NCBI GenBank assembly: GCA_964532385.1
Contig: CAZHHW010000005.1
Coordinates: 1-62,222, forward strand
DNA length: 62,222 nucleotides
Direction: 5' to 3'
Source of the DNA: an uncultured Gammaproteobacteria bacterium
GTDB lineage: Bacteria; Pseudomonadota; Gammaproteobacteria; SG8-11
The translations under genes were made by a program, and so were the position numbers. Positions 483-50,061 of the stretch are shown in pieces (position 1 is the stretch's first letter; each line of letters opens with the position of its first letter). Below the pieces are notes generated by a model. The model searched no databases. It had not been told where the DNA came from and saw only the letters and a program-made list of their open reading frames with translations.

Positions 483-1424
483 ATGGCCCGCAAACCGCGA
501 CTACATGTGGACGAAGGAATCTACCACGTCATGCTGCGCGGTAACGGCGGGCAGGCTATTTACTTCGATGACGATGATCGTCTCCATTTTTATCTGTTGA
601 TGCAGGAAGGCATCGCACGTTATGGGCACCGCATCCATGGTTTCTGCCTGATGAGTAACCACGTGCATCTGGTCGTGGAAGTCGGCGCGCAACCGCTGGC
701 GAAGATCATGCAGAATCTGTCGTTCCGCTATACCCGCTGGGTGAACAAGAAACAAAAGCGTATCGGCCACCTGTTTCAAGGTCGCTACAAAGCAGTACTT
801 GTTGATCGCGATAGCTACCTGCTTGAGCTCGTGCGGTACGTTCATTTGAATCCGGTGCGCGCGAAGCTCGTGCGCCAGGCACACCATTACCCGTGGTGCG
901 GGCACCGCGCCTATTTGGGCCGCGAGACCCTGCCGTGGCTCACCACCGAGTGGGTGCTTAGCCAATTCGGAACGCGACTGGGTACAAGCCGAAATCGCTA
1001 TGAAGCTTTTGTACGCGAAGGCTACCGCGAAGGGCGACGCGATGATTTTCATTCCGGCGGCGATGACGATGGACGCGTGCTAGGCGATGAACGATTCACA
1101 CGACGTACCCTAAACAAGGCGATCACCTCACCCAAAACAGTCACCCTGGATCAGCTGATTCAAATGGTATGCGAGAAGTACAACGTGACCGAGAAAACGC
1201 TCGCATCTGTGGGACGCGAGCGTGCAACGTCCGAGGCGCGATCCGTGGTTGGATGGCTGGCACAGCAGTGCGCGCAAATAACCCTGACGGAAGTTGCAAA
1301 TCGTTTTAGGCGCGACGTGGCGACGCTGAGTCACGGAGTTAGACAATTGAGTTTGAAGGCGCAAACTTCCAAACCGTTAGCGACAAAATTGGCGAAGCTC
1401 AACAATACAATTAGGCAAGCCTGA
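483..1424 (+). CDS. Y1/HUH tyrosine transposase-like protein (IS200/IS605 or REP-associated RAYT type) with C-terminal DnaA-domain-IV-like HTH
   Basis: ATG 483 preceded by GAAGGAG. Motifs YHVMLRGN, MSNHVHLVVE (HUH), GHLFQGRYK, RYVHLNPVRA. C-terminal ...ATSEARSVVGWLAQQCAQITLTEVANRFRRDVATLSHGV resembles Bac_DnaA_C. Confidence 0.8.
   Translation: MARKPRLHVDEGIYHVMLRGNGGQAIYFDDDDRLHFYLLMQEGIARYGHRIHGFCLMSNHVHLVVEVGAQPLAKIMQNLSFRYTRWVNKKQKRIGHLFQGRYKAVLVDRDSYLLELVRYVHLNPVRAKLVRQAHHYPWCGHRAYLGRETLPWLTTEWVLSQFGTRLGTSRNRYEAFVREGYREGRRDDFHSGGDDDGRVLGDERFTRRTLNKAITSPKTVTLDQLIQMVCEKYNVTEKTLASVGRERATSEARSVVGWLAQQCAQITLTEVANRFRRDVATLSHGVRQLSLKAQTSKPLATKLAKLNNTIRQA
812..1150 (+). repeat. Direct repeat partner of nt 49-387 (339 nt, 7 mismatches in total)
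   Basis: Base-by-base comparison of the two stretches. Mismatches at copy-A positions 58, 61, 319, 328, 340, 366, 367. Confidence 0.9.
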
Positions 1425-1490
1425 CCCTATGTTCTATGTTCACTATGTTCATGACCCTATGTTCTTCTATGATTCCTCTATGTTTATGTT
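1422..1490 (+). repeat. Array of CTATGTT heptamers (5 perfect, 2 degenerate); the 13-mer TGACCCTATGTTC occurs twice
   Basis: CTATGTT at 1427, 1434, 1443, 1457, 1478; CTATGAT at 1467; TATGTT at 1485. The 13-mer sits at 1422-1434 and 1452-1464. The array starts at the transposase stop codon. Confidence 0.85.
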
Positions 1491-1502
1491 TTGAGAGGTT
1501 TC

Positions 1503-1745
1503 ATGAAACGAGCAGGTGACATGGTGGTGACAAAAGGCATGCTGTGGGGCACGTTTTTTTTTGTCCTATTCGCTCTATTGCCGCAGATTTTAAAAACGTT
1601 CTATAAAAATTCTGTACTTGATGTGATAACAATAGGTATTGCTTGGTACGCATATTTAATTATTCTCGGATTTGTTGTGAGTTTCGTTGTTGGTGTAATT
1701 GGACATGGAAAGAAAATTTCAGGTTGGTTTTCTCGGACGGAATAG
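1503..1745 (+). CDS. Small hypothetical membrane protein (80 aa, two hydrophobic segments)
   Basis: ATG 1503 after GAGAGG. GMLWGTFFFVLFALLP and IGIAWYAYLIILGFVVSFVVGVIG look like TM helices. AT-rich codons; no recognised family. Confidence 0.5.
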   Translation: MKRAGDMVVTKGMLWGTFFFVLFALLPQILKTFYKNSVLDVITIGIAWYAYLIILGFVVSFVVGVIGHGKKISGWFSRTE

Positions 1746-1762
1746 ACTTTTCAAAAAAGGGC

Positions 1763-1786
1763 AAAAAAGGGGACGGTTCACTTTTT
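1763..1786. repeat. Copy 1 of the AAAA-GGGGACGGTTC-CTTTT motif
   Basis: aaaaaaGGGGACGGTTCacttttt. The 11-mer GGGGACGGTTC recurs at 1941-1951 with similar A-run and T-run flanks. Confidence 0.6.
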
Positions 1787-1935
1787 CGGCGGGAACGGGC
1801 AAGTCCAAGCAGTTCATCCCCCGGCTACTACTCATGCATACATGCAAATTTGGGGTAGTCGAACGCGCAAATCGACACGCACACCAAGGTCGATTAGGTT
1901 TTTATCACTCAAAATGAGACAGGACTTGGATGACC

Positions 1936-1957
1936 AAAATGGGGACGGTTCCCTTTT
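1936..1957. repeat. Copy 2 of the AAAA-GGGGACGGTTC-CTTTT motif (small imperfect hairpin)
   Basis: aaaatGGGGACGGTTCccttttaa. AAAA(T)GGG can pair with CCCTTTT. Confidence 0.6.
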
Positions 1958-2303
1958 AATCACTAACGGCTGTCGACACCATCAACGGGCACGCGACCGA
2001 CGTCAATGACGTGATCACCTTCACGCACGATGAACGCGGCCAACTGACCCAAATTAACTAGACCAATACCCGGAACGACAACTGTAGGGTGTGACGCTGG
2101 ATTGGGGCTTTACCGATTAAGCTTCGGGCAAGATGTGAATCGTCCGCAACTGGAAACCTTGATGGCGTTCGGGGTCAAGAACGGGGTCACGGCTCGTCCG
2201 ACGAATATTCGAGTCTCATCGCCAGTAGACGACTTTATTTTTCGGTGACACAACATAAATTTTATAGAAGCAGGGGACATCGACTGCCGATGCCCCCTGT
2301 AAA

Positions 2304-2834
2304 TCACCGCGCCGACAAGACGCTGGCTTGTGGTCCTTGCTCTCCTTGCGCTTCTGCGTAGTGCACCTGGGTGCCGACGCGTAGTTGTTTGAAATTCCCA
2401 TGCGTAACGCTGTTTTCGTGGAAATAAATTTCGCGTCCTTCCGCTGTGGTAATAAATCCGTAACCGGCCTGTTCAAAAACTTGGCTGACGCGGGCGGGAG
2501 TATGCATGTCATGGGTCTTGACTTCATTGCGATGGCGGCGCGCATAACTTTGCAATTGACGCCGCGCAGCATCGAAAGCATCGCGGATTGCGACATATAA
2601 ATCTTCACGCGGCTCGCGTTTTACTATCAGCTCTGCGCCTGGGACATGTATGTCGATGTCGACGTGATACGACTTGCCCTTATGCTGATGTCGATGTGGT
2701 GCGTGAATAACGACGCGGCAACTGGTAATGCGGTCGAAGAATTGGGTGAGTTTGTCTGCCTTGGCATGAATGGCGGTTTCAATCGCCTCTGTCAATGGCA
2801 TATCGCGAGCGGTGATCTGTAAAGCAAGCTTCAT
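2304..2834 (-). CDS. Fusion protein: N-terminal HPF/RaiA/YfiA-type ribosome-associated domain plus C-terminal cold-shock domain (176 aa)
   Basis: ATG 2834 with GGAGG 8 nt upstream. N-terminal MKLALQITARDMPLTEAIETAIHAKADKL... parallels the canonical hpf in this window. C-terminal GYGFITTAEGREIYFHENSV...FKQLRVGTQVHY..GEQGPQA carries CSD RNP1/RNP2-like motifs. Confidence 0.75.
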   Translation of the reverse strand: MKLALQITARDMPLTEAIETAIHAKADKLTQFFDRITSCRVVIHAPHRHQHKGKSYHVDIDIHVPGAELIVKREPREDLYVAIRDAFDAARRQLQSYARRHRNEVKTHDMHTPARVSQVFEQAGYGFITTAEGREIYFHENSVTHGNFKQLRVGTQVHYAEAQGEQGPQASVLSAR

Positions 2835-3079
2835 TTCACTGTCCTCCACTTTTTGTTAAAAGCGATACGACGTGCGTCGACGAACGTGCAACGAATATTT
2901 AGGCGCGGATCGGATCTCCATAGATAAGCTTGATTGTGTTGCGCAGCGTCGCGAGCGCGGCGTCTGCCGTGGCATGAAGAGCCCACGTTTTAATCCTAGC
3001 ACGAAGAACATTCACCACGGCGAGCGGGTGCTGGCAAGAACTGTACGCGACGAGATCAGGAAGGGCGGCGGTCTTGCGA

Positions 3080-3562
3080 CTAGCCGATATAAGCCCAGAT
3101 GGTAATTTCGTAAGTAAGAAGTGCGATGTAAAGCCAGGCATAGCCGTAAATGATGTGGCGAACTTGGAGGATATTAAATATTCGGAATTGATGATGAATA
3201 ACCAAAAACACGACACTGGTCGCGGTCATGGCATATTTTGTTACCAGGAAGATGATCACGCCTTTTTCGATAGCGAGCCTCATGACGATATTCAGCTCAG
3301 TGGCTCCCATCGCAAGCAGTTTGAGGGTGATATGCGCGTCGATCATGCACAACACCAGAATGATCAGGCTGGGGATGAATAACCGCGCATCGTAGTGATC
3401 CAGATAATGATGATGGGCCATTGTCGAGTCACCGATGCTGCGACGCACGCTTCGACGGCGGCCATTGGCACGGAAAACACTAAAAAATGAGGGGCGATTT
3501 TGGCGCCGATCCAGTTGTGACTGACGCATACAATACTGATAAGTCGTTGTTGGGTAAGTCAT
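3080..3562 (-). CDS. Membrane protein, DUF5658-like, with Arg-rich N-terminal segment
   Basis: Three to four hydrophobic helices (LFIPSLIILVLCMIDAHITL..., VIIFLVTKYAMTATSVVFLV, YGYAWLYIALLTYEITIWAYI) after LDRRQNR...GRRRSVRRSIG. Start uncertain (3562 or 3628). Confidence 0.55.
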   Translation of the reverse strand: MTYPTTTYQYCMRQSQLDRRQNRPSFFSVFRANGRRRSVRRSIGDSTMAHHHYLDHYDARLFIPSLIILVLCMIDAHITLKLLAMGATELNIVMRLAIEKGVIIFLVTKYAMTATSVVFLVIHHQFRIFNILQVRHIIYGYAWLYIALLTYEITIWAYIG

Positions 3563-3944
3563 TGTATTTCCAGTGTTACCGATAGGTGTACGAAAATCTG
3601 AACGAAGTATAGTCCGGCAGGGATGCAAAGTTTAAATGAGAAAACGGAATAACCGTTCGCCCAGGTTATACCAACCCGTCGAATGCAAAGGCAGCGCTTG
3701 GGTTAATTTGCGTCTTCCGTATACGCGAGTGAGAACGGATGCACGAATGTTGAGAGTCTTGAAATATTCGGTGGTAGAGCAGCTATATTTAATGAAGGTG
3801 TCAATGAGTGGACAAAACCTTCCTGTGCAGTGACGCAATCTTGACGATTTAGGAAGAACGGGATGCCCTTCGCATCTGTCAGAAAGTTAATTCTCACCCC
3901 TCATTTGCAATGGATTAGTGCAGCCCGAAATTAAATTTTCGTGT

Positions 3945-3960
3945 TGGCACCAATTCTGTA
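3945..3960 (+). promoter_or_regulatory. Weak sigma-54-like -24/-12 element upstream of the PilZ gene
   Basis: TGGCAC-caatt-CTGTA. The GG-N10 spacing is right, but -12 reads GT instead of GC. Lies 78 nt upstream of ATG 4038. Confidence 0.15.
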
Positions 3961-4037
3961 CACAAATCATGTTTATTCGTTCCCACGTAGTCGACTTGGG
4001 TGGGCTCTTCATACTTCAATAAATTCAGGAGCACATT

Positions 4038-4412
4038 ATGTTGGCGGAATCGCGTGAAACCATTCGGCAAAATATCCGGCTTGATGAAGTAAACGGATCA
4101 TTTAGTTTGCAGGTGAAAGATAAGAGTTACGACCCTGCAATGATCTGCGATGTGTCTGTTTCAGGAGCAGGTATTCAACTCATTGAACCCCTGGAAGTCG
4201 GCACTTCGGTCGATATGATTTTCAGCGCGGGAGATTGGAAGATCGCTGTAGAAGGACGCGTGGTGTGGTGCGCGGTTGCGGTGGCTCGCGACGAGCCTGG
4301 CGCCAAGCGGACGGAAGCTTATCGCATGGGTATTAAATTCAATCCGCGCAATGCCAATAACAATGTCATTTTTTTCATGGCATCGCGCTCCGTGGTCCAC
4401 TCACACGCATAA
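4038..4412 (+). CDS. PilZ domain protein (putative c-di-GMP receptor)
   Basis: RETIRQNIR (RxxxR) followed ~30 aa later by DVSVSGAG (DxSxxG). AGGAG 7 nt before the ATG. Confidence 0.8.
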   Translation: MLAESRETIRQNIRLDEVNGSFSLQVKDKSYDPAMICDVSVSGAGIQLIEPLEVGTSVDMIFSAGDWKIAVEGRVVWCAVAVARDEPGAKRTEAYRMGIKFNPRNANNNVIFFMASRSVVHSHA

Positions 4413-4483
4413 TCGAAAACATGGATTCGCAGGTTAAATTCTCTTGGACGTTGAACGCCGGCCATCATTCGTGCTGTGGATTT

Positions 4484-5122
4484 CTAGTGCGGCATGCTGC
4501 GTTTGCTGTTTAACCATTTGATCAGCGGTTGCCACTGTTCCAGGTCGAATTCCACGGCCGAAGGCGCCATTTCAAAAATCCCCAATCCCCGTTCGGCGGC
4601 GCGAATGTAGTTTTGTGTATCACGCAGCGTTGCGATGAAAGGAATATCCAGCGCCTTCAGAAACGTTTCGAGATGTTGATAGATCAGCGTGTGTTCGCGT
4701 ACGCGGTTGGCGATCACCGCCAGCTTCACTTCGTCGCGCGAGACGCGGCCCATGGTGAGAATATCCTGGATGAAATGCGCACAAGCGCGCATATCGATGG
4801 GCGAGGGTAATACTGGGATAAGCGCTGTTTGCACGCGTCTGAGTGCAGGCGTCAGGTCTTTGCCATGGGTGCCGGCCGGGGCGTCGTAGATGACCACATC
4901 GCTATCTTTGGGAATTTTAATTTCATCTTTCCAGCCGCGAATGCCATGAATTACAGGCCGGTCCTGCGGACGCGCCTTGAGCCATTCCAGGCTGCAACCT
5001 TGCGGATCGAGATCGACCACCGTAACCGACTTGCCGTTGGCTGCATAGTAGCTGGCGAGATTGCTCGCAATCGTGCTTTTACCACAACCGCCTTTCTGGT
5101 TCAGGGTTAAGATGCTGCGCAT
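4484..5122 (-). CDS. ParA/MinD-family ATPase (orphan ParA-like, 212 aa)
   Basis: Deviant Walker A LNQKGGCGKST; VVDLDPQG; DVVIYDAPAG (Walker B-like). Confidence 0.85.
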   Translation of the reverse strand: MRSILTLNQKGGCGKSTIASNLASYYAANGKSVTVVDLDPQGCSLEWLKARPQDRPVIHGIRGWKDEIKIPKDSDVVIYDAPAGTHGKDLTPALRRVQTALIPVLPSPIDMRACAHFIQDILTMGRVSRDEVKLAVIANRVREHTLIYQHLETFLKALDIPFIATLRDTQNYIRAAERGLGIFEMAPSAVEFDLEQWQPLIKWLNSKRSMPH

Positions 5123-45360: not shown

Positions 45361-45774
45361 TTATAGCTGCGATGGATCCTTGCGCAGGTCCTTGCACACA
45401 AGGACGCCATCGTGCCCGCCGCTCAGTGCTTTTTCAGCCAGCTCGTTGAGGCTTAGCTTGGGATAGTTCATCACCCGCAACAGCATCGGCAGGTTGATGC
45501 CCGCAATCACCCGCACGTGATGATTACCCTGCAACGCGGACGCAACATTGCTGGGTGTGCTGCCGAACAAATCAGTCAAGACCAGCACTCCGTCGCCGTC
45601 GTCGACTTCGCACACCAGCTTGTGGGCGTGGTCGAGCATGGCATCGGGATCTTTATCCGAAGTTATACCCAGCAATGCGACCGGAATCGGCTGTGTGCCG
45701 AGCATGCCGACGGTCGCGTCGAGCAGCGCACGGCCCAAGTCATTGTGGGTAATGATCAATAATCCGACGCTCAT
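45361..45774 (-). CDS. PTS EIIA component, mannose/fructose family
   Basis: VGLLIITHNDLG (active His), VLVLTDLFGSTPSN. ATGA overlap with the rapZ stop. Confidence 0.85.
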   Translation of the reverse strand: MSVGLLIITHNDLGRALLDATVGMLGTQPIPVALLGITSDKDPDAMLDHAHKLVCEVDDGDGVLVLTDLFGSTPSNVASALQGNHHVRVIAGINLPMLLRVMNYPKLSLNELAEKALSGGHDGVLVCKDLRKDPSQL

Positions 45775-46628
45775 GCTAACTCCCTGTGTCGCGCCAGTAC
45801 TCCGCTGCGGGTTTTTGCAAAATGGTCCGCCAGGCGCCGGGCGAAGTAGACCGAGCGGTGTTGTCCGCCGGTGCAACCGATGGCAACGGTAACGTAACTG
45901 CGGTTATCGGCTTCAAATTGCGGCAGCCATTGTTCCAGGAAATTGCGGATATCGCCAAACATCTGGATAGCATGCGGATCGCGTTCCAGAAATTCGGCGA
46001 CATCGCTGTCCAGGCCGGTTTTATCGCGCAGGGTGGGTACCCAATGGGGATTCGCCAGGCAGCGCACATCGAAAACGAAGTCGGCATCCGTGGGCACTCC
46101 GCGCTTGAAGGCGAACGATTCAAATAATAATGACAGCGTTTGCTGCGGTTTTTCCAGTACTCGTATGCGGATGGCATCGCGTAATTGATGAATGTTGTAA
46201 TGGCTGGTGTCGACGAAAAGATCGGCGCACCCGGCGATGGGCTCCAGTACCTTGCGTTCGCGTTGCATGGCTTCCGCCAGCGGAATGGCGACATCCGACA
46301 GGGGATGTTTGCGGCGCGTTTCGCTGAAGCGCTTGAGCAACACATTGTCGTCGGCATAGAGGAACAAGGTTTCGCAGACGATCCCGCCTGCCTTGAGTTC
46401 GGCCAGTATTTTCGGGAAATTCTCGATATCGTCGGGCACATTACGCGCATCGATGCCGATCGCCGCGCCGATCGGACAAGTCTCCGTGCTCATCGACATG
46501 CGTTGTGCGAACGCAGGCAAAAGACCGGCCGGCAAATTGTCGATGCAGTAGAAACCCAAATCTTCGAAAACATTGAGCGCGGTACTTTTTCCGGAACCCG
46601 ATACACCGCTCACGACATACAACTTCAT
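45771..46628 (-). CDS. rapZ: RNase adapter protein RapZ
   Basis: P-loop SGVSGSGKSTA, FVFDVR, AIGCTGGQHRSV. Confidence 0.92.
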   Translation of the reverse strand: MKLYVVSGVSGSGKSTALNVFEDLGFYCIDNLPAGLLPAFAQRMSMSTETCPIGAAIGIDARNVPDDIENFPKILAELKAGGIVCETLFLYADDNVLLKRFSETRRKHPLSDVAIPLAEAMQRERKVLEPIAGCADLFVDTSHYNIHQLRDAIRIRVLEKPQQTLSLLFESFAFKRGVPTDADFVFDVRCLANPHWVPTLRDKTGLDSDVAEFLERDPHAIQMFGDIRNFLEQWLPQFEADNRSYVTVAIGCTGGQHRSVYFARRLADHFAKTRSGVLARHRELA

Positions 46629-47581
46629 GGGGGCGGTTGCTCCATATGGTCGTGTTGCTGGGCAGAGAAAGCATCGAAGGCATCATAGCCCTGATTGAGT
46701 AATATCTGGTTGCGCGCGGCGCATTCTACCACCACGGCCAAGTGGCGTCCGGGGGTTACGGGCAAGGTCACTTTATGGATGGAAACGCCCAGTACGTCGT
46801 AGGTTTGCCGCGCCGTGGTCAGGCGCTGAGTACGGTTAAGTTGTTCATCGCCCATTTTTATCAATTCTACCGCCAATTGAAGCCGTTCAGTCTGTTTGAC
46901 AGCGCTCTCCCCGAACATGGTGCGGATGTTCAGCACGCCCAGTCCACGCACTTCGAGGAAGTCACGTAATACCGGTGGACAGCTGCCCACGATGACATCG
47001 CCGTCCGCACGGTGAAATTCCGGTGCGTCGTCGGCGATCAAACGGTGTCCGCGGCTCAGTAAATCCAGGGCCAGTTCGCTTTTTCCGATGCCGCTTTCGC
47101 CGGTTAACAAAATGCCGATGCCGACGATTTCCATGAATACGCCGTGCGTGGTGATGTGTTTGGTAAATGTGGTTTTGAGATGGTAAGTAATACGCTCGAT
47201 CACGTCCTGTGCTTTGGCGCGTGCGCTCCATAGCGGGGTGCCGGTATCTTCGGCGAGACGTTTTAAACCGGCCGGGGGTTTCAGCCCGTCAGTGACGATA
47301 ATGGCGGCGGGATCGTTGTCGAACAAATGCACGATGACATCGGCATGCGCGTTTTTACCCAGCTTATTCAAATACTCGAGTTCTTTGCTTCCCAGTACCT
47401 GAATACGCGGAGCGTGGATACAGTTCATGTATCCCGCCAGCACTCGGTCGGCTTCAGCTGCGTGCAGGTTATCCGGGTGTTGCAGTACGCGGTGCTTGCC
47501 GGAATGTCCCGCAACCCATTCCAGGCCCGAGGTTAATTCGTGCGTAGTGAACAAGGTTGCGACTGAAACGTTTTGCGTCAT
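46625..47581 (-). CDS. hprK: HPr kinase/phosphorylase (full length)
   Basis: HGVFMEIVGIGILLTGESGIGKSELALDL, ADD, LEVRGLG. Confidence 0.9.
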   Translation of the reverse strand: MTQNVSVATLFTTHELTSGLEWVAGHSGKHRVLQHPDNLHAAEADRVLAGYMNCIHAPRIQVLGSKELEYLNKLGKNAHADVIVHLFDNDPAAIIVTDGLKPPAGLKRLAEDTGTPLWSARAKAQDVIERITYHLKTTFTKHITTHGVFMEIVGIGILLTGESGIGKSELALDLLSRGHRLIADDAPEFHRADGDVIVGSCPPVLRDFLEVRGLGVLNIRTMFGESAVKQTERLQLAVELIKMGDEQLNRTQRLTTARQTYDVLGVSIHKVTLPVTPGRHLAVVVECAARNQILLNQGYDAFDAFSAQQHDHMEQPPP

Positions 47582-48042
47582 GGCGCGTGGTGTGGATTCC
47601 AGTGCGTAAGCGCCGCGAGCAGCGCGTCGGTATCCTTGGCTTGACGCAATTGATTGCGGATCGCTTCGTTGCTGAACAATTCTGCGATTTGCGCCACCAG
47701 TTGCAGATGTTCTTCAGTGCAATGTTCCGGCACCACGATGGCGAATAATAAGTCCACCGGGCCACGGTCGGCAGCATCGAAATCAACGCCCTGAACCAGT
47801 TGCACGAAGGCGCCGCGCGTGCCGGAAATTTTTTTCATGCGGCCGTGCGGCAATGCCACGCCGTAACCCAGCGCCGTACTGCCCAAACGCTCGCGCGCAG
47901 TCAGGCTCTCAAAAATTTCCTGCGAGGTTGTATCGGCTTTTTCGGCCAGGAGCAGGCTTAATAATTCCAGCGCGCGCTTTTTGCTGCTGGCTTGTGCGCC
48001 TGCAAGCACGCGTTGTGGGGCCAAAATATCGCTTAATTGCAT
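47578..48042 (-). CDS. ptsN: PTS IIA-Ntr (nitrogen regulatory EIIA)
   Basis: MQLSDIL..., RERLGSTALGYGVALPHGR (active His). Alternative starts at 48075/48153. Confidence 0.88.
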   Translation of the reverse strand: MQLSDILAPQRVLAGAQASSKKRALELLSLLLAEKADTTSQEIFESLTARERLGSTALGYGVALPHGRMKKISGTRGAFVQLVQGVDFDAADRGPVDLLFAIVVPEHCTEEHLQLVAQIAELFSNEAIRNQLRQAKDTDALLAALTHWNPHHAP

Positions 48043-48236
48043 AAGATCGTCGGCTCTATGGGCGGCAGCGGTCATTAATAATCCATTGCGCCAAAAGACG
48101 GATATGAAACCGTTGGTTTTTTTGCAGGGCTCCCTTGCGGGACGCCGCGGCATGCCGCATGCGGCTGCGTAGCTGTGCCTCGCCTGGCAAAAAAATCCAT
48201 CGGCTTCATTTCATATTCCTTTGACGAAACGAACAT

Positions 48237-48530
48237 CTAGCGGTGTTGGTCAATGCGTTTTTCTTTAAGCTTGTTGGCCTGCCGGTCAAGCTTGTCGATC
48301 AACGAATCGATCGCAGCGTACATGTCTTGTTCTTCCGCGTTTGCGAACAGGTTATCACCATTTGCAGACACGGTGGCTTCGGCTCGGTGGCGTAACTTCT
48401 CTACTCCCAGGATAACGTGCACCTTTGAAACCTTATCGAAATGGCGTTCCAGGCGTGCCATTTTTTCAGTGGTGTAATCACGCAGCGCAGTGGTGATTTC
48501 AACATGGTGACCGGTGATGTCGATTTGCAT
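48237..48530 (-). CDS. hpf: Ribosome hibernation promoting factor (short HPF)
   Basis: MQIDITGHHVEITTALRDYTTEKMARLERHF; lies immediately downstream of rpoN. Confidence 0.92.
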   Translation of the reverse strand: MQIDITGHHVEITTALRDYTTEKMARLERHFDKVSKVHVILGVEKLRHRAEATVSANGDNLFANAEEQDMYAAIDSLIDKLDRQANKLKEKRIDQHR

Positions 48531-48582
48531 GAGGCTGCTCCTTTAATTGTAATTGTGATTTAAATGTAAAGACTTGGCTTGT

Positions 48583-50061
48583 CTAGGCGAGCCGTTTGCG
48601 TTCGTTGGAAGGAGGAATGGTCATGGCTTCGCGATATTTTGCGACCGTGCGGCGCGCGACCTTGATGCCTTGGTCGGATAACAGGCTCGCAAGTTTGCTA
48701 TCACTCAGCGGCTTGTTGCGTTCCTCGGCGGAGATCAGTTTTTTCAGCATGGCGCGAATCGCGGTGGAGGAGCATTCGCCGCCATCTTCGGTGGCTACAT
48801 GGCTGCTGAAGAAATATTTCAATTCGTAAATGCCGCGCGGTGTGTGCATGTATTTTTTGGTGGTGACGCGCGAAATGGTGGATTCGTGCATGCCGACTTC
48901 TTGTGCAATGACCGACATCACCAGCGGCTGCATGGCCTCATCGCCGTACTCAAGGAAACCACGTTGCCGTTCGACGATGCAGGTTGCGACTTTAAGCAAG
49001 GTTTCGTTGCGGCTTTGCAGGCTTTTCAGCAGCCAGCGTGCTTCCTGCAACTGATTTTTTAAATAAGTGGAATCGGCGGAATTGCGTGAATGCTGCGCCA
49101 TGCCGGAATACAGGGAGTTGATTCGCAGTTTAGGCGAGGTGTCCGGATTCAATTCCACCTTCCAGAGATTGTTGCGTTTGCGTACGTAAACATCAGGCAC
49201 TACATATTCGGTTTGCTGATCGGTGATCTGCCCGCCGGGCCGCGGATTGACGGTTTGCAGCAGTGCAATCACCTGTTGTAAATCGGCTTCAGGTAATTTC
49301 ATGCGGCGCATGATCAAGCTGTAATCACGGTGTGCCAGCAAATCGAAATGCTCGCGTGCCAGGCACACGGCTTCGGCGAGCCAAGGCGTTCCGGCGGGAT
49401 ATTGTTTGAGTTGCAACAGCATGCTTTCGCGCAAGTCGCGCGCACCGATACCGGGTGGATCGAATTGCTGGATGCGATGCAGCACGGCTTCGATTTCTTC
49501 GCGTCCGATGTCTGGATCGCTGGCGAATTCCAGCTGTAATTCTTCGATCGGCGTGGTGAGATAACCGTCATGATCGATGGCGTCGATGATGGTCAGCGCG
49601 ATCGACAAATCGGTCGGCGAAAACGGTGCCATCTGCACTTGCCAGGTTAAGTGGTCGTGCAGACTTTCACCACTCTGGTTCTGGGTTTCAAACTCGCGGC
49701 CATCGTGATCCGCGCCATTGCCGGAAGCGGAGGCGCCATAGGTTTCAAATGTATCGAAGGTGTCGTCCCAGTTACTGTCCACCGGTAGATCGTCGGGGAT
49801 GGTGGATTCATTGATTTCCACATCCGCTTCGCGCGACTCAGTGGCGACCGTGATTTCGGTTTCGCGCATATGTTCCGCGGGAAGATCTTCGTCTTCGCCG
49901 CCCTCATCCTCGGTAATTTCGAGCATGGGGTTGGACTCCAGCGCTTGTTGCATTTCCTGTTGCAACTCGAGCGCGGACAATTGCAGCAACCGGATGGCCT
50001 GCTGCAATTGCGGCGTCATCGTCAGATGTTGGCCGATGCGAAGTTGTAGCGATTGTTTCAT
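48583..50061 (-). CDS. rpoN: RNA polymerase sigma-54 factor
   Basis: [25 protein letters not shown] region I, acidic region II, RpoN box [12 protein letters not shown]. Confidence 0.95.

Follow-up and report, generated by a model that had tools for sequence, protein, structure and literature searches.

An HPF–cold-shock domain fusion from an uncultured gammaproteobacterium is a member of the widespread HPFcold class of ribosome hibernation factors

A gene on the minus strand of a 62,222-nucleotide stretch of DNA from an uncultured gammaproteobacterium (the whole of which we call the window) encodes a protein of 176 residues, in which an HPF/RaiA-type domain is followed by a cold-shock domain (CSD). 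This fusion is real, but it is a member of a known and widespread class, HPFcold, and does not represent a new mechanism. We consider it very probable that the protein is a ribosome hibernation factor of the HPFcold type, homologous to CBU_0020 of Coxiella burnetii and to Lpg1206 (LhpF) of Legionella pneumophila, whose CSD caps the anti-Shine-Dalgarno (anti-SD) sequence of 16S rRNA. An earlier note on this DNA had proposed a hibernation or cold-adaptation factor directed at mRNA or rRNA, and had known of no characterised protein with this architecture. The hibernation role and the rRNA target agree with what is seen in the solved homologue, whereas targeting of mRNA and a role in the cold found no support. 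The architecture itself has already been described (PMC13392368, 10.1101/2025.11.04.686544, PMC12977618), with a cryo-EM structure available, and is found in at least 594 species genomes.

Similarity to CBU_0020 and residues in contact with RNA

A phmmer search against the sequences in the PDB returned chain 9 of 9T0Z and 9TZE ('Ribosome hibernation promoting factor') with E = 3.3e-46. Residues 1-175 of the window protein align without gaps to residues 6-180 of this chain, with 46% identity and 64% positives in BLASTP. The two entries are the 30S and 70S ribosomal particles of Coxiella burnetii with CBU_0020, for which the name HPFcold was introduced (Stuart et al., Nat Commun 2026, PMC13392368). 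In these cryo-EM structures, the S30AE domain is located in the 30S decoding centre and blocks the decoding site, whereas the CSD, which follows a linker described as six residues long, occupies the mRNA exit channel, where the anti-SD 3' end of 16S rRNA wraps around it and the proteins bS21 and uS7 fix it in position (PMC13392368). Four contacts between the CSD and RNA are named: Y142 and F132 stack on U1534 and C1535, respectively, R123 forms a pseudo-pair with C1535, and R177 connects the 16S backbone segments G924-925 and C1530 (PMC13392368). Stuart et al. proposed that capping of the RNase-sensitive 16S 3' end provides a 70S monomer with a protection like that of the 100S particle (PMC13392368).

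The gapless alignment allows Coxiella positions to be mapped to the window protein by an offset of five, and we counted their conservation in 112 diverse family members drawn from our search of representative sequences. The tyrosine at position 137 (Coxiella Y142) is kept in 108 members and the phenylalanine at position 127 (Coxiella F132) in 105; by these counts the aromatic stacking pair is family-defining, and it is present in the window protein. Position 118, which is glutamine in the window protein and R123 in Coxiella, has arginine in 63 members, lysine in 20 and glutamine in 7, i.e. Arg or Lys in 74% of the family and Gln in 6%, and the close relatives of the window protein have Q or H. 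Judging from this alignment, Gln118 is a minority state and not a loss of the CSD; it records natural variation, from Arg to Gln, at a named RNA contact. A first alignment, biased to close relatives, had led us to regard R123 as lineage-specific and position 118 as freely variable, a view overturned by the Arg/Lys majority in the 112-sequence alignment. The equivalent of R177 is V172, and arginine occurs there in only 16 of the 112 members, which makes this contact, as far as the alignment goes, a specific feature of the Coxiella lineage and not one that defines the family.

The second homologue for which a function has been studied is that of Legionella. The source data of Stuart et al. give the Legionella protein Q5ZW81 as HPFcold (PMC13392368), and this accession is the Lpg1206 protein of Legionella pneumophila, named 'LhpF' (Schmid et al., mBio 2026, PMC12977618). 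Together with raiA, lhpF is needed for starvation survival; it contributes to survival and regrowth and influences 100S levels (PMC12977618). Schmid et al. count LhpF among the long HPFs and give it a 'distinct C-terminal domain', which they do not recognise as a CSD (PMC12977618). Within the covered portions of the two papers, the genetics of LhpF (PMC12977618) and the structure of HPFcold (PMC13392368) are not linked to each other.

The mode of action seen with the Coxiella homologue would apply to the window protein as follows. The S30AE domain would insert into the decoding centre of the 30S subunit and into the tRNA cleft, excluding mRNA and A-site tRNA, and the conserved linker would follow the path of the mRNA. 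The CSD would come to lie in the mRNA exit channel, with the single-stranded 16S 3' end, i.e. the anti-SD, wrapped over its RNP1/RNP2 face and F127 and Y137 serving as stacking platforms for the anti-SD bases. The predicted outcome is a translationally silent ribosome with a capped RNase-sensitive 16S 3' end, for which neither RMF nor the dimerisation domain of long HPF would be needed, and the protein would work alongside the short HPF whose housekeeping gene adjoins rpoN.

Domains, linker and predicted structure

Both halves of the protein score above their Pfam thresholds: Ribosomal_S30AE (PF02482) matches residues 5-101 with 67.9 bits (cut-off 23.7) and CSD (PF00313) residues 119-172 with 42.9 bits (cut-off 27). 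These were the only two Pfam models at E ≤ 1, and the dimerisation domain of long HPF (Ribosom_S30AE_C) was not detected. Among the NCBIfam models, the broad HPF/YfiA family model TIGR00741 is passed (49.2 against a cut-off of 40.9), and the protein stays below the equivalogs for short HPF (NF007780, 41.6 against 125) and RaiA (NF007654, 20.8 against 158), as well as far below all Csp equivalogs, the best of which is CspE (NF049933, 38.6 against 120). The earlier note had read an HPF-type domain and a complete CSD in one open reading frame (ORF), and its CSD motifs are present as described, with the RNP1-like GYGFI at residues 124-128, the RNP2-like IYFHE at 136-140 and GEQGPQA at 164-170.

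An AlphaFold2 model of the window protein, built with 73 homologues, has a mean confidence (pLDDT) of 86 and shows a domain of HPF fold joined by a disordered linker to a Csp barrel. The pLDDT is 77-96 in the N-terminal domain and below 50 for residues 104-110, which are disordered. In Foldseek searches with this model, the first domain resembled structures of HPF, RaiA and pY with TM-scores of 0.86-0.93, and the second domain structures of Csp proteins with TM-scores of 0.82-0.88. When the CSD is mapped onto E. coli CspA, Y125 corresponds to F18, F127 to F20, Y137 to F31, H139 to H33 and E140 to F34; the equivalent of CspA W11 is a glutamine.

The loop between β-strands 2 and 3 of the N-terminal domain (A-P-H-R-H-Q-H-K-G, residues 45-53, nt 2676-2702) is rich in histidine and arginine and constitutes, in the alignment, an insertion of about six residues relative to short HPF. 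Its pattern P-H-R-H-x-H-K-G is kept in the branch of the window protein and is more variable across the family, where P is found in 76, H in 58, R/K in 81 and G in 97 of the 112 members. This loop may be the Mg-coordinating surface mentioned by Stuart et al. The spacing of the linker is identical in 90 of the 112 members, K106 is found in 99 and H108 in 92; given this constant length and the conservation of both residues, the linker would be more than a passive tether.

Integrity of the gene and of the domain junction

The ORF runs without interruption on the minus strand from an ATG at 2834-2832 to a TGA at 2306-2304, and GGAGG at 2847-2843 is located exactly 8 nt ahead of the ATG, as the earlier note had reported. 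The ORF listing also offered a longer alternative with a GTG start at 2849. Since this GTG lies within the Shine-Dalgarno (SD) sequence and all homologues begin at the M-K-L position, we take the ATG at 2834 to be the real start.

An artefact of assembly or frameshift, or a decaying pseudogene derived from two adjacent genes, could in principle mimic a fusion. It is brought to mind only by a duplicated transposase fragment nearby and a stretch of lower GC content; we found no evidence in its support, its probability is practically nil, and the data on ORF conservation, independent assembly and selection already refute it. Over positions 1980-4063, some 2 kb, the window matches an assembly obtained independently from a different sequencing run (L085) at 99.3% identity, and this assembly has the same ORF. 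Four more distant contigs (L081, L082, L083 and L084), whose proteins are 74-79% identical, each contain a single ORF of 176 codons, and the two-domain length is kept in the species genomes and in the roughly 200 clusters described below. Relative to these relatives, pS is 0.71-0.89, with synonymous sites near saturation, and pN is 0.09-0.21, which puts dN/dS at about 0.04-0.08 for either domain and points to purifying selection on each of them. The junction between the HPF domain and the CSD is therefore genuine: the near-identical assembly has it, the ORF is preserved in five relatives, and dN/dS is low on both sides of a linker of constant length.

Distribution and neighborhood of the family

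A word-indexed search with the window protein yielded 1820 hits, and nearly all of the top 120 are proteins of 176-190 residues with both Pfam domains. In the databases these proteins carry only the names 'HPF/RaiA family ribosome-associated protein' or 'ribosomal subunit interface protein', and re-annotating such entries as HPFcold would be useful. In a scan with one genome per species, at least 594 species genomes have a relative. The genomes listed include Gammaproteobacteria (Chromatiaceae, Acidiferrobacterales), Nitrospirota, Binatia, 'Deltaproteobacteria', Zetaproteobacteria, Nostocales cyanobacteria, Brocadia and Planctomycetes, and the closest genome among the matches listed is the metagenome-assembled genome VAR_43_metabat_102. 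When 1.84 billion representatives were searched exhaustively with HMMER, 203 clusters at 50% identity reached E ≤ 1e-30, and practically all of these match at full length across the two domains. The S30AE-CSD architecture is thus common and not rare.

In an independent survey, Chan et al. (bioRxiv 10.1101/2025.11.04.686544) described chimeric HPF isoforms, termed HPF-Csp, HPF-SigE and HPF-CBS, which coexist with the canonical HPF of the conserved hpf operon, are encoded at variable loci and have spread horizontally. They view the fusions as replacing a lost dimerisation domain, note that many chimeras are mis-annotated as long HPF, and report them frequently adjacent to Balon and on plasmids (10.1101/2025.11.04.686544).

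We surveyed the neighborhoods of 80 related loci (L001-L080). The most frequent neighbors are stress or dormancy genes: tandem Usp (11 loci), a CBS pair (9), Hsp20 (9), RtcB RNA ligase (8), a YbaK-type tRNA editing domain (8), a sigma-54 activator (8) and a phosphoribosyltransferase (6). As no neighbor is common to more than 11 of the 80 loci, no operon partner defines the HPFcold family. An apparent neighbor 'cluster' present at 67 loci is no more than the antisense shadow ORF. Both the census and the recurrence of Usp, CBS, Hsp20 and RtcB next to the gene support a general role in dormancy.

Candidate expression signals

We aligned the intergenic region ahead of the gene from five clade members (217-245 nt). 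The string GTGCTAG[G/C]ATT (window 2992-3002) is invariant in all five, in an alignment that is otherwise 67% identical, and the conserved element to which it belongs, GTGCTAGGATTAA, is unique within the window. The -10-like box has a C at -13, and TAA follows downstream in three of the five sequences; with these two features the element resembles sigma-S promoters. On the strength of its conservation, GTGCTAGGATTAA is a candidate extended -10 promoter element, from which transcription would be predicted to start near position 2986. A generic scan for sigma-70 promoters over positions 1400-4500 gave no promoter-like hits.

The intergenic alignment further contains a small GC-rich palindromic block, conserved in the clade, about 25 nt ahead of the ribosome-binding site. 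Searches with Rfam, at gathering thresholds for the whole window and at E ≤ 1 for positions 2200-3700, gave no match, neither to a cspA thermoregulator nor to a riboswitch in the leader; at the gathering score, the whole 62-kb window is likewise free of matches to tRNA, rRNA, riboswitches and small RNAs. As a single sequence, the leader folds no better than its shuffles (z = +0.8), and a consensus fold of the five sequences shows a possible helix sequestering the SD, with two covarying pairs and a covariation term of 0 from few independent sequences. Downstream of the gene, the hairpin at 2271-2299 is probably the 3' end of the transcript or a stabiliser; a terminator scan did not call it, its tail having too few T and no clean U-tract.

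By analogy with the studied homologues, the gene most likely responds to stationary phase or to starvation and not specifically to cold. Expression of cbu0020 rises 10.5-fold on the transition of Coxiella to the stationary small-cell variant (PMC4766238), and the lhpF promoter of Legionella is strictly RpoS-dependent and, instead of being induced at 30 °C, is off at this temperature (PMC12977618).

Weighing of alternative explanations

Several points weigh against assigning the window protein to HPFcold with the same mode of action. We infer that it binds ribosomes from its 46% identity to the solved homologue. The partner surfaces in its host, the 16S 3' end and bS21, lie outside the window, which contains no rRNA, and two of the four named Coxiella RNA contacts are not kept (R123 to Q118, R177 to V172). 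Moreover, the two studied homologues differ: the Legionella orthologue is tied to the formation of 100S particles (PMC12977618), whereas only 70S monomers were seen in Coxiella (PMC13392368). The last of these points raises the alternative that the protein acts mainly by promoting 100S dimers, its CSD replacing the dimerisation domain of long HPF through CSD-CSD contacts or a recruited partner, as would fit the view of Chan et al. that the fusions substitute for this domain (10.1101/2025.11.04.686544). Deletion of lhpF lowers the exponential-phase 100S peak, and its over-expression yields a 100S peak in late stationary phase, but 100S particles are still abundant in the lhpF raiA double mutant, so that another factor must drive dimerisation (PMC12977618). 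Among the Coxiella particles no dimers were seen, and the CSD lies deep in the exit channel on the anti-SD, although Stuart et al. allow that dimers may have been lost in sample preparation and that dimerisation through the CSD is conceivable (PMC13392368). On balance we regard a mainly dimer-promoting factor as unlikely; it is, however, compatible with capping of the 16S 3' end and does not exclude it.

A cold-shock gene product that chaperones mRNA, or that tethers mRNAs to silenced ribosomes, would be suggested by the presence of a CSD in which the aromatics and the histidine used by Csp proteins to bind single-stranded RNA are kept (Y125, F127, Y137, H139), and by a leader whose length, about 150 nt on the assumption that the -10-like box is a promoter, gives it a superficial likeness to cspA. 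We nevertheless judge such a role very improbable. The CSD of the solved homologue binds the 16S anti-SD, and its N-terminal domain fills the mRNA path and so excludes mRNA (PMC13392368). The regulation of lhpF, the missing Rfam match to a cspA thermoregulator and the insignificant fold of the leader all argue against a cold-shock gene, as do the scores far under the cut-offs of all NCBIfam Csp equivalogs and the glutamine in place of CspA W11. A slim chance remains that the clade of the window protein represents a functional variant of HPFcold that holds the 16S 3' end differently, or in which the switch to hibernation is tied to a second messenger or the membrane. What suggests this is the Gln or His at position 118, the block shared within the clade with genes for DUF5658 and for PilZ, a domain of the type of cyclic di-GMP receptors, and the leader of about 150 nt, which may sequester a very strong SD. 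If true, these behaviours would be ones not described for HPFcold. Capping of the anti-SD by an HPFcold-type hibernation factor stays our preferred reading of the window gene.

Features of the window and the canonical hpf

The features of the gene and its surroundings are collected in Table 1.

Table 1. Position and basis of the features assigned in the window
Feature	Position	Strand	Basis
HPFcold-family gene, 176 codons plus TGA stop (2304-2306)	2304..2834	-	ORF and translation
N-terminal S30AE (HPF/RaiA-type) domain, residues 1-103, β-α-β-β-β-α fold	2526..2834	-	Pfam PF02482, AlphaFold2, Foldseek
Inter-domain linker, residues 104-113, with conserved K106 and H108	2496..2525	-	AlphaFold2 pLDDT, family alignment
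C-terminal cold-shock domain, residues 114-176, five-stranded β-barrel	2307..2495	-	Pfam PF00313, Foldseek
Shine-Dalgarno block AGTGGAGGA, GGAGG at 2843-2847	2842..2850	-	Read from sequence; invariant in five clade members
Conserved GTGCTAGGATTAA, candidate extended -10 promoter element (TGnTAGGAT)	2990..3002	-	Clade conservation; leader about 150 nt if promoter
12-bp GC-rich stem-loop, 5 nt past the stop codon	2271..2299	-	RNA fold -23 kcal/mol, z = -4.64
Canonical short HPF, 97 aa, co-resident housekeeping paralogue	48237..48530	-	S30AE 93.6 bits; NCBIfam TIGR00741 110.3 bits

The earlier note had called the fusion protein an extra paralogue beside a housekeeping hpf linked to rpoN, and this holds: the canonical hpf is found at the position it gave, to which we add the minus strand. 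It lies directly downstream of rpoN (48583-50061) in a cluster rpoN-hpf-ptsN-hprK (HPr kinase/phosphorylase)-rapZ at 45771-50061, with all genes on the minus strand, 45 kb from the HPFcold gene. A parallel that the note had drawn between the two proteins stands at the level of the family only, the N-terminal domain of HPFcold having just 21% identity to the short HPF of the window (E = 0.012); from this low identity, their paralogy would be ancient. Searches with tblastn for E. coli RMF, CspA and RaiA matched only the two S30AE genes in the 62-kb window. The pairing of HPFcold with a short HPF, known from Coxiella, is seen here outside intracellular pathogens, with no RMF or RaiA found in the 62 kb examined.

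Upstream of the HPFcold gene, on the same strand, is a gene for a DUF5658 membrane protein, followed by a divergent PilZ gene. The order PilZ(-)/DUF179 (AlgH-like)/DUF5658/HPFcold, corresponding to a block at window positions 3080-4412, is conserved in four related loci (L007, L081, L082, L083), whereas DUF179 is missing from the window and from L085, its 99%-identical twin, where there is only a gap of 409 nt (3629-4037, GC 0.44). The flanks past PilZ differ between the window and these relatives. Downstream of the HPFcold gene, an ORF at 408-1424 encodes a 'transposase' with Y1_Tnp (IS200-like) and a Bac_DnaA_C helix-turn-helix. It is flanked by inverted repeats of 25 nt (390-414 and 1404-1428) that are 92% complementary, and is preceded by a 300-nt partial copy of its middle part (49-348 versus 812-1111, 98% identical), an arrangement that points to a partial duplication, tandem or nested, at the edge of the window.

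The GC content is 0.44-0.52 over positions 1500-4500, compared to 0.558 for the whole window, a dip to which the DUF5658 gene and non-coding sequence contribute most. The AT-richer islet beside a transposase, to which the earlier note had drawn attention, is therefore real but mild; as evidence it is weak, since the GC content of the gene is unremarkable and the PilZ-DUF5658-HPFcold block is common to related species. An argument for horizontal transfer from GC content is equally weak, as the HPFcold gene, at 0.525, lies between the mean of the window and the canonical hpf (0.50).

Comparison with known systems

The closest characterised relative, CBU_0020, shares with the window protein the two-domain architecture, the length, the linker and the stacking Phe and Tyr, as well as the coexistence with a short HPF where no RMF or RaiA was found (for the window organism, within the 62 kb). 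The two differ in the Gln118 and Val172 that replace R123 and R177, in their hosts (an uncultured gammaproteobacterium of free-living type as opposed to an obligate intracellular pathogen) and in gene context, the PilZ-DUF5658-HPFcold block being that of the window gene. With LhpF, the only member of the HPFcold family with genetics, the window protein has in common that it is encoded in a gammaproteobacterium as an additional HPF paralogue; RMF is lacking in Legionella and was not found in the 62 kb of the window. The link between LhpF and HPFcold rests on the shared accession.

Like the chimeras of Chan et al., the window protein has no dimerisation domain of the long-HPF type and is encoded away from the canonical hpf at rpoN, at a variable locus, and its family has the patchy distribution expected from horizontal transfer. 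Unlike many of these chimeras, it has no Balon-sized gene adjacent to it in the window, which shows no plasmid hallmarks (no dedicated search of plasmid collections was made).

Compared with the classical hibernation factors, i.e. short HPF, RaiA (YfiA) and long HPF, the window protein has the same fold of the N-terminal domain, passes the same family model and would occupy the same site in the 30S decoding centre. It differs from short HPF in the six-residue His/Arg-rich insertion between β-strands 2 and 3 and in scoring below the HPF and RaiA equivalog cut-offs, and from RaiA and long HPF in having a CSD in place of the RaiA C-tail or the long-HPF dimerisation domain. With the stand-alone CspA, CspB and CspE proteins it shares a five-stranded OB-type barrel (TM-scores 0.82-0.88) and the RNP1/RNP2 aromatics. 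Its CSD is, however, only about 30% identical to them over 48 residues, with all Csp equivalog scores far under the cut-off, and whereas they are single domains of about 70 residues, it is tethered to an HPF domain in a protein of 176 residues; further, the RNA bound by the CSD of the solved HPFcold homologue belongs to the ribosome itself, being the 3' end of 16S rRNA.

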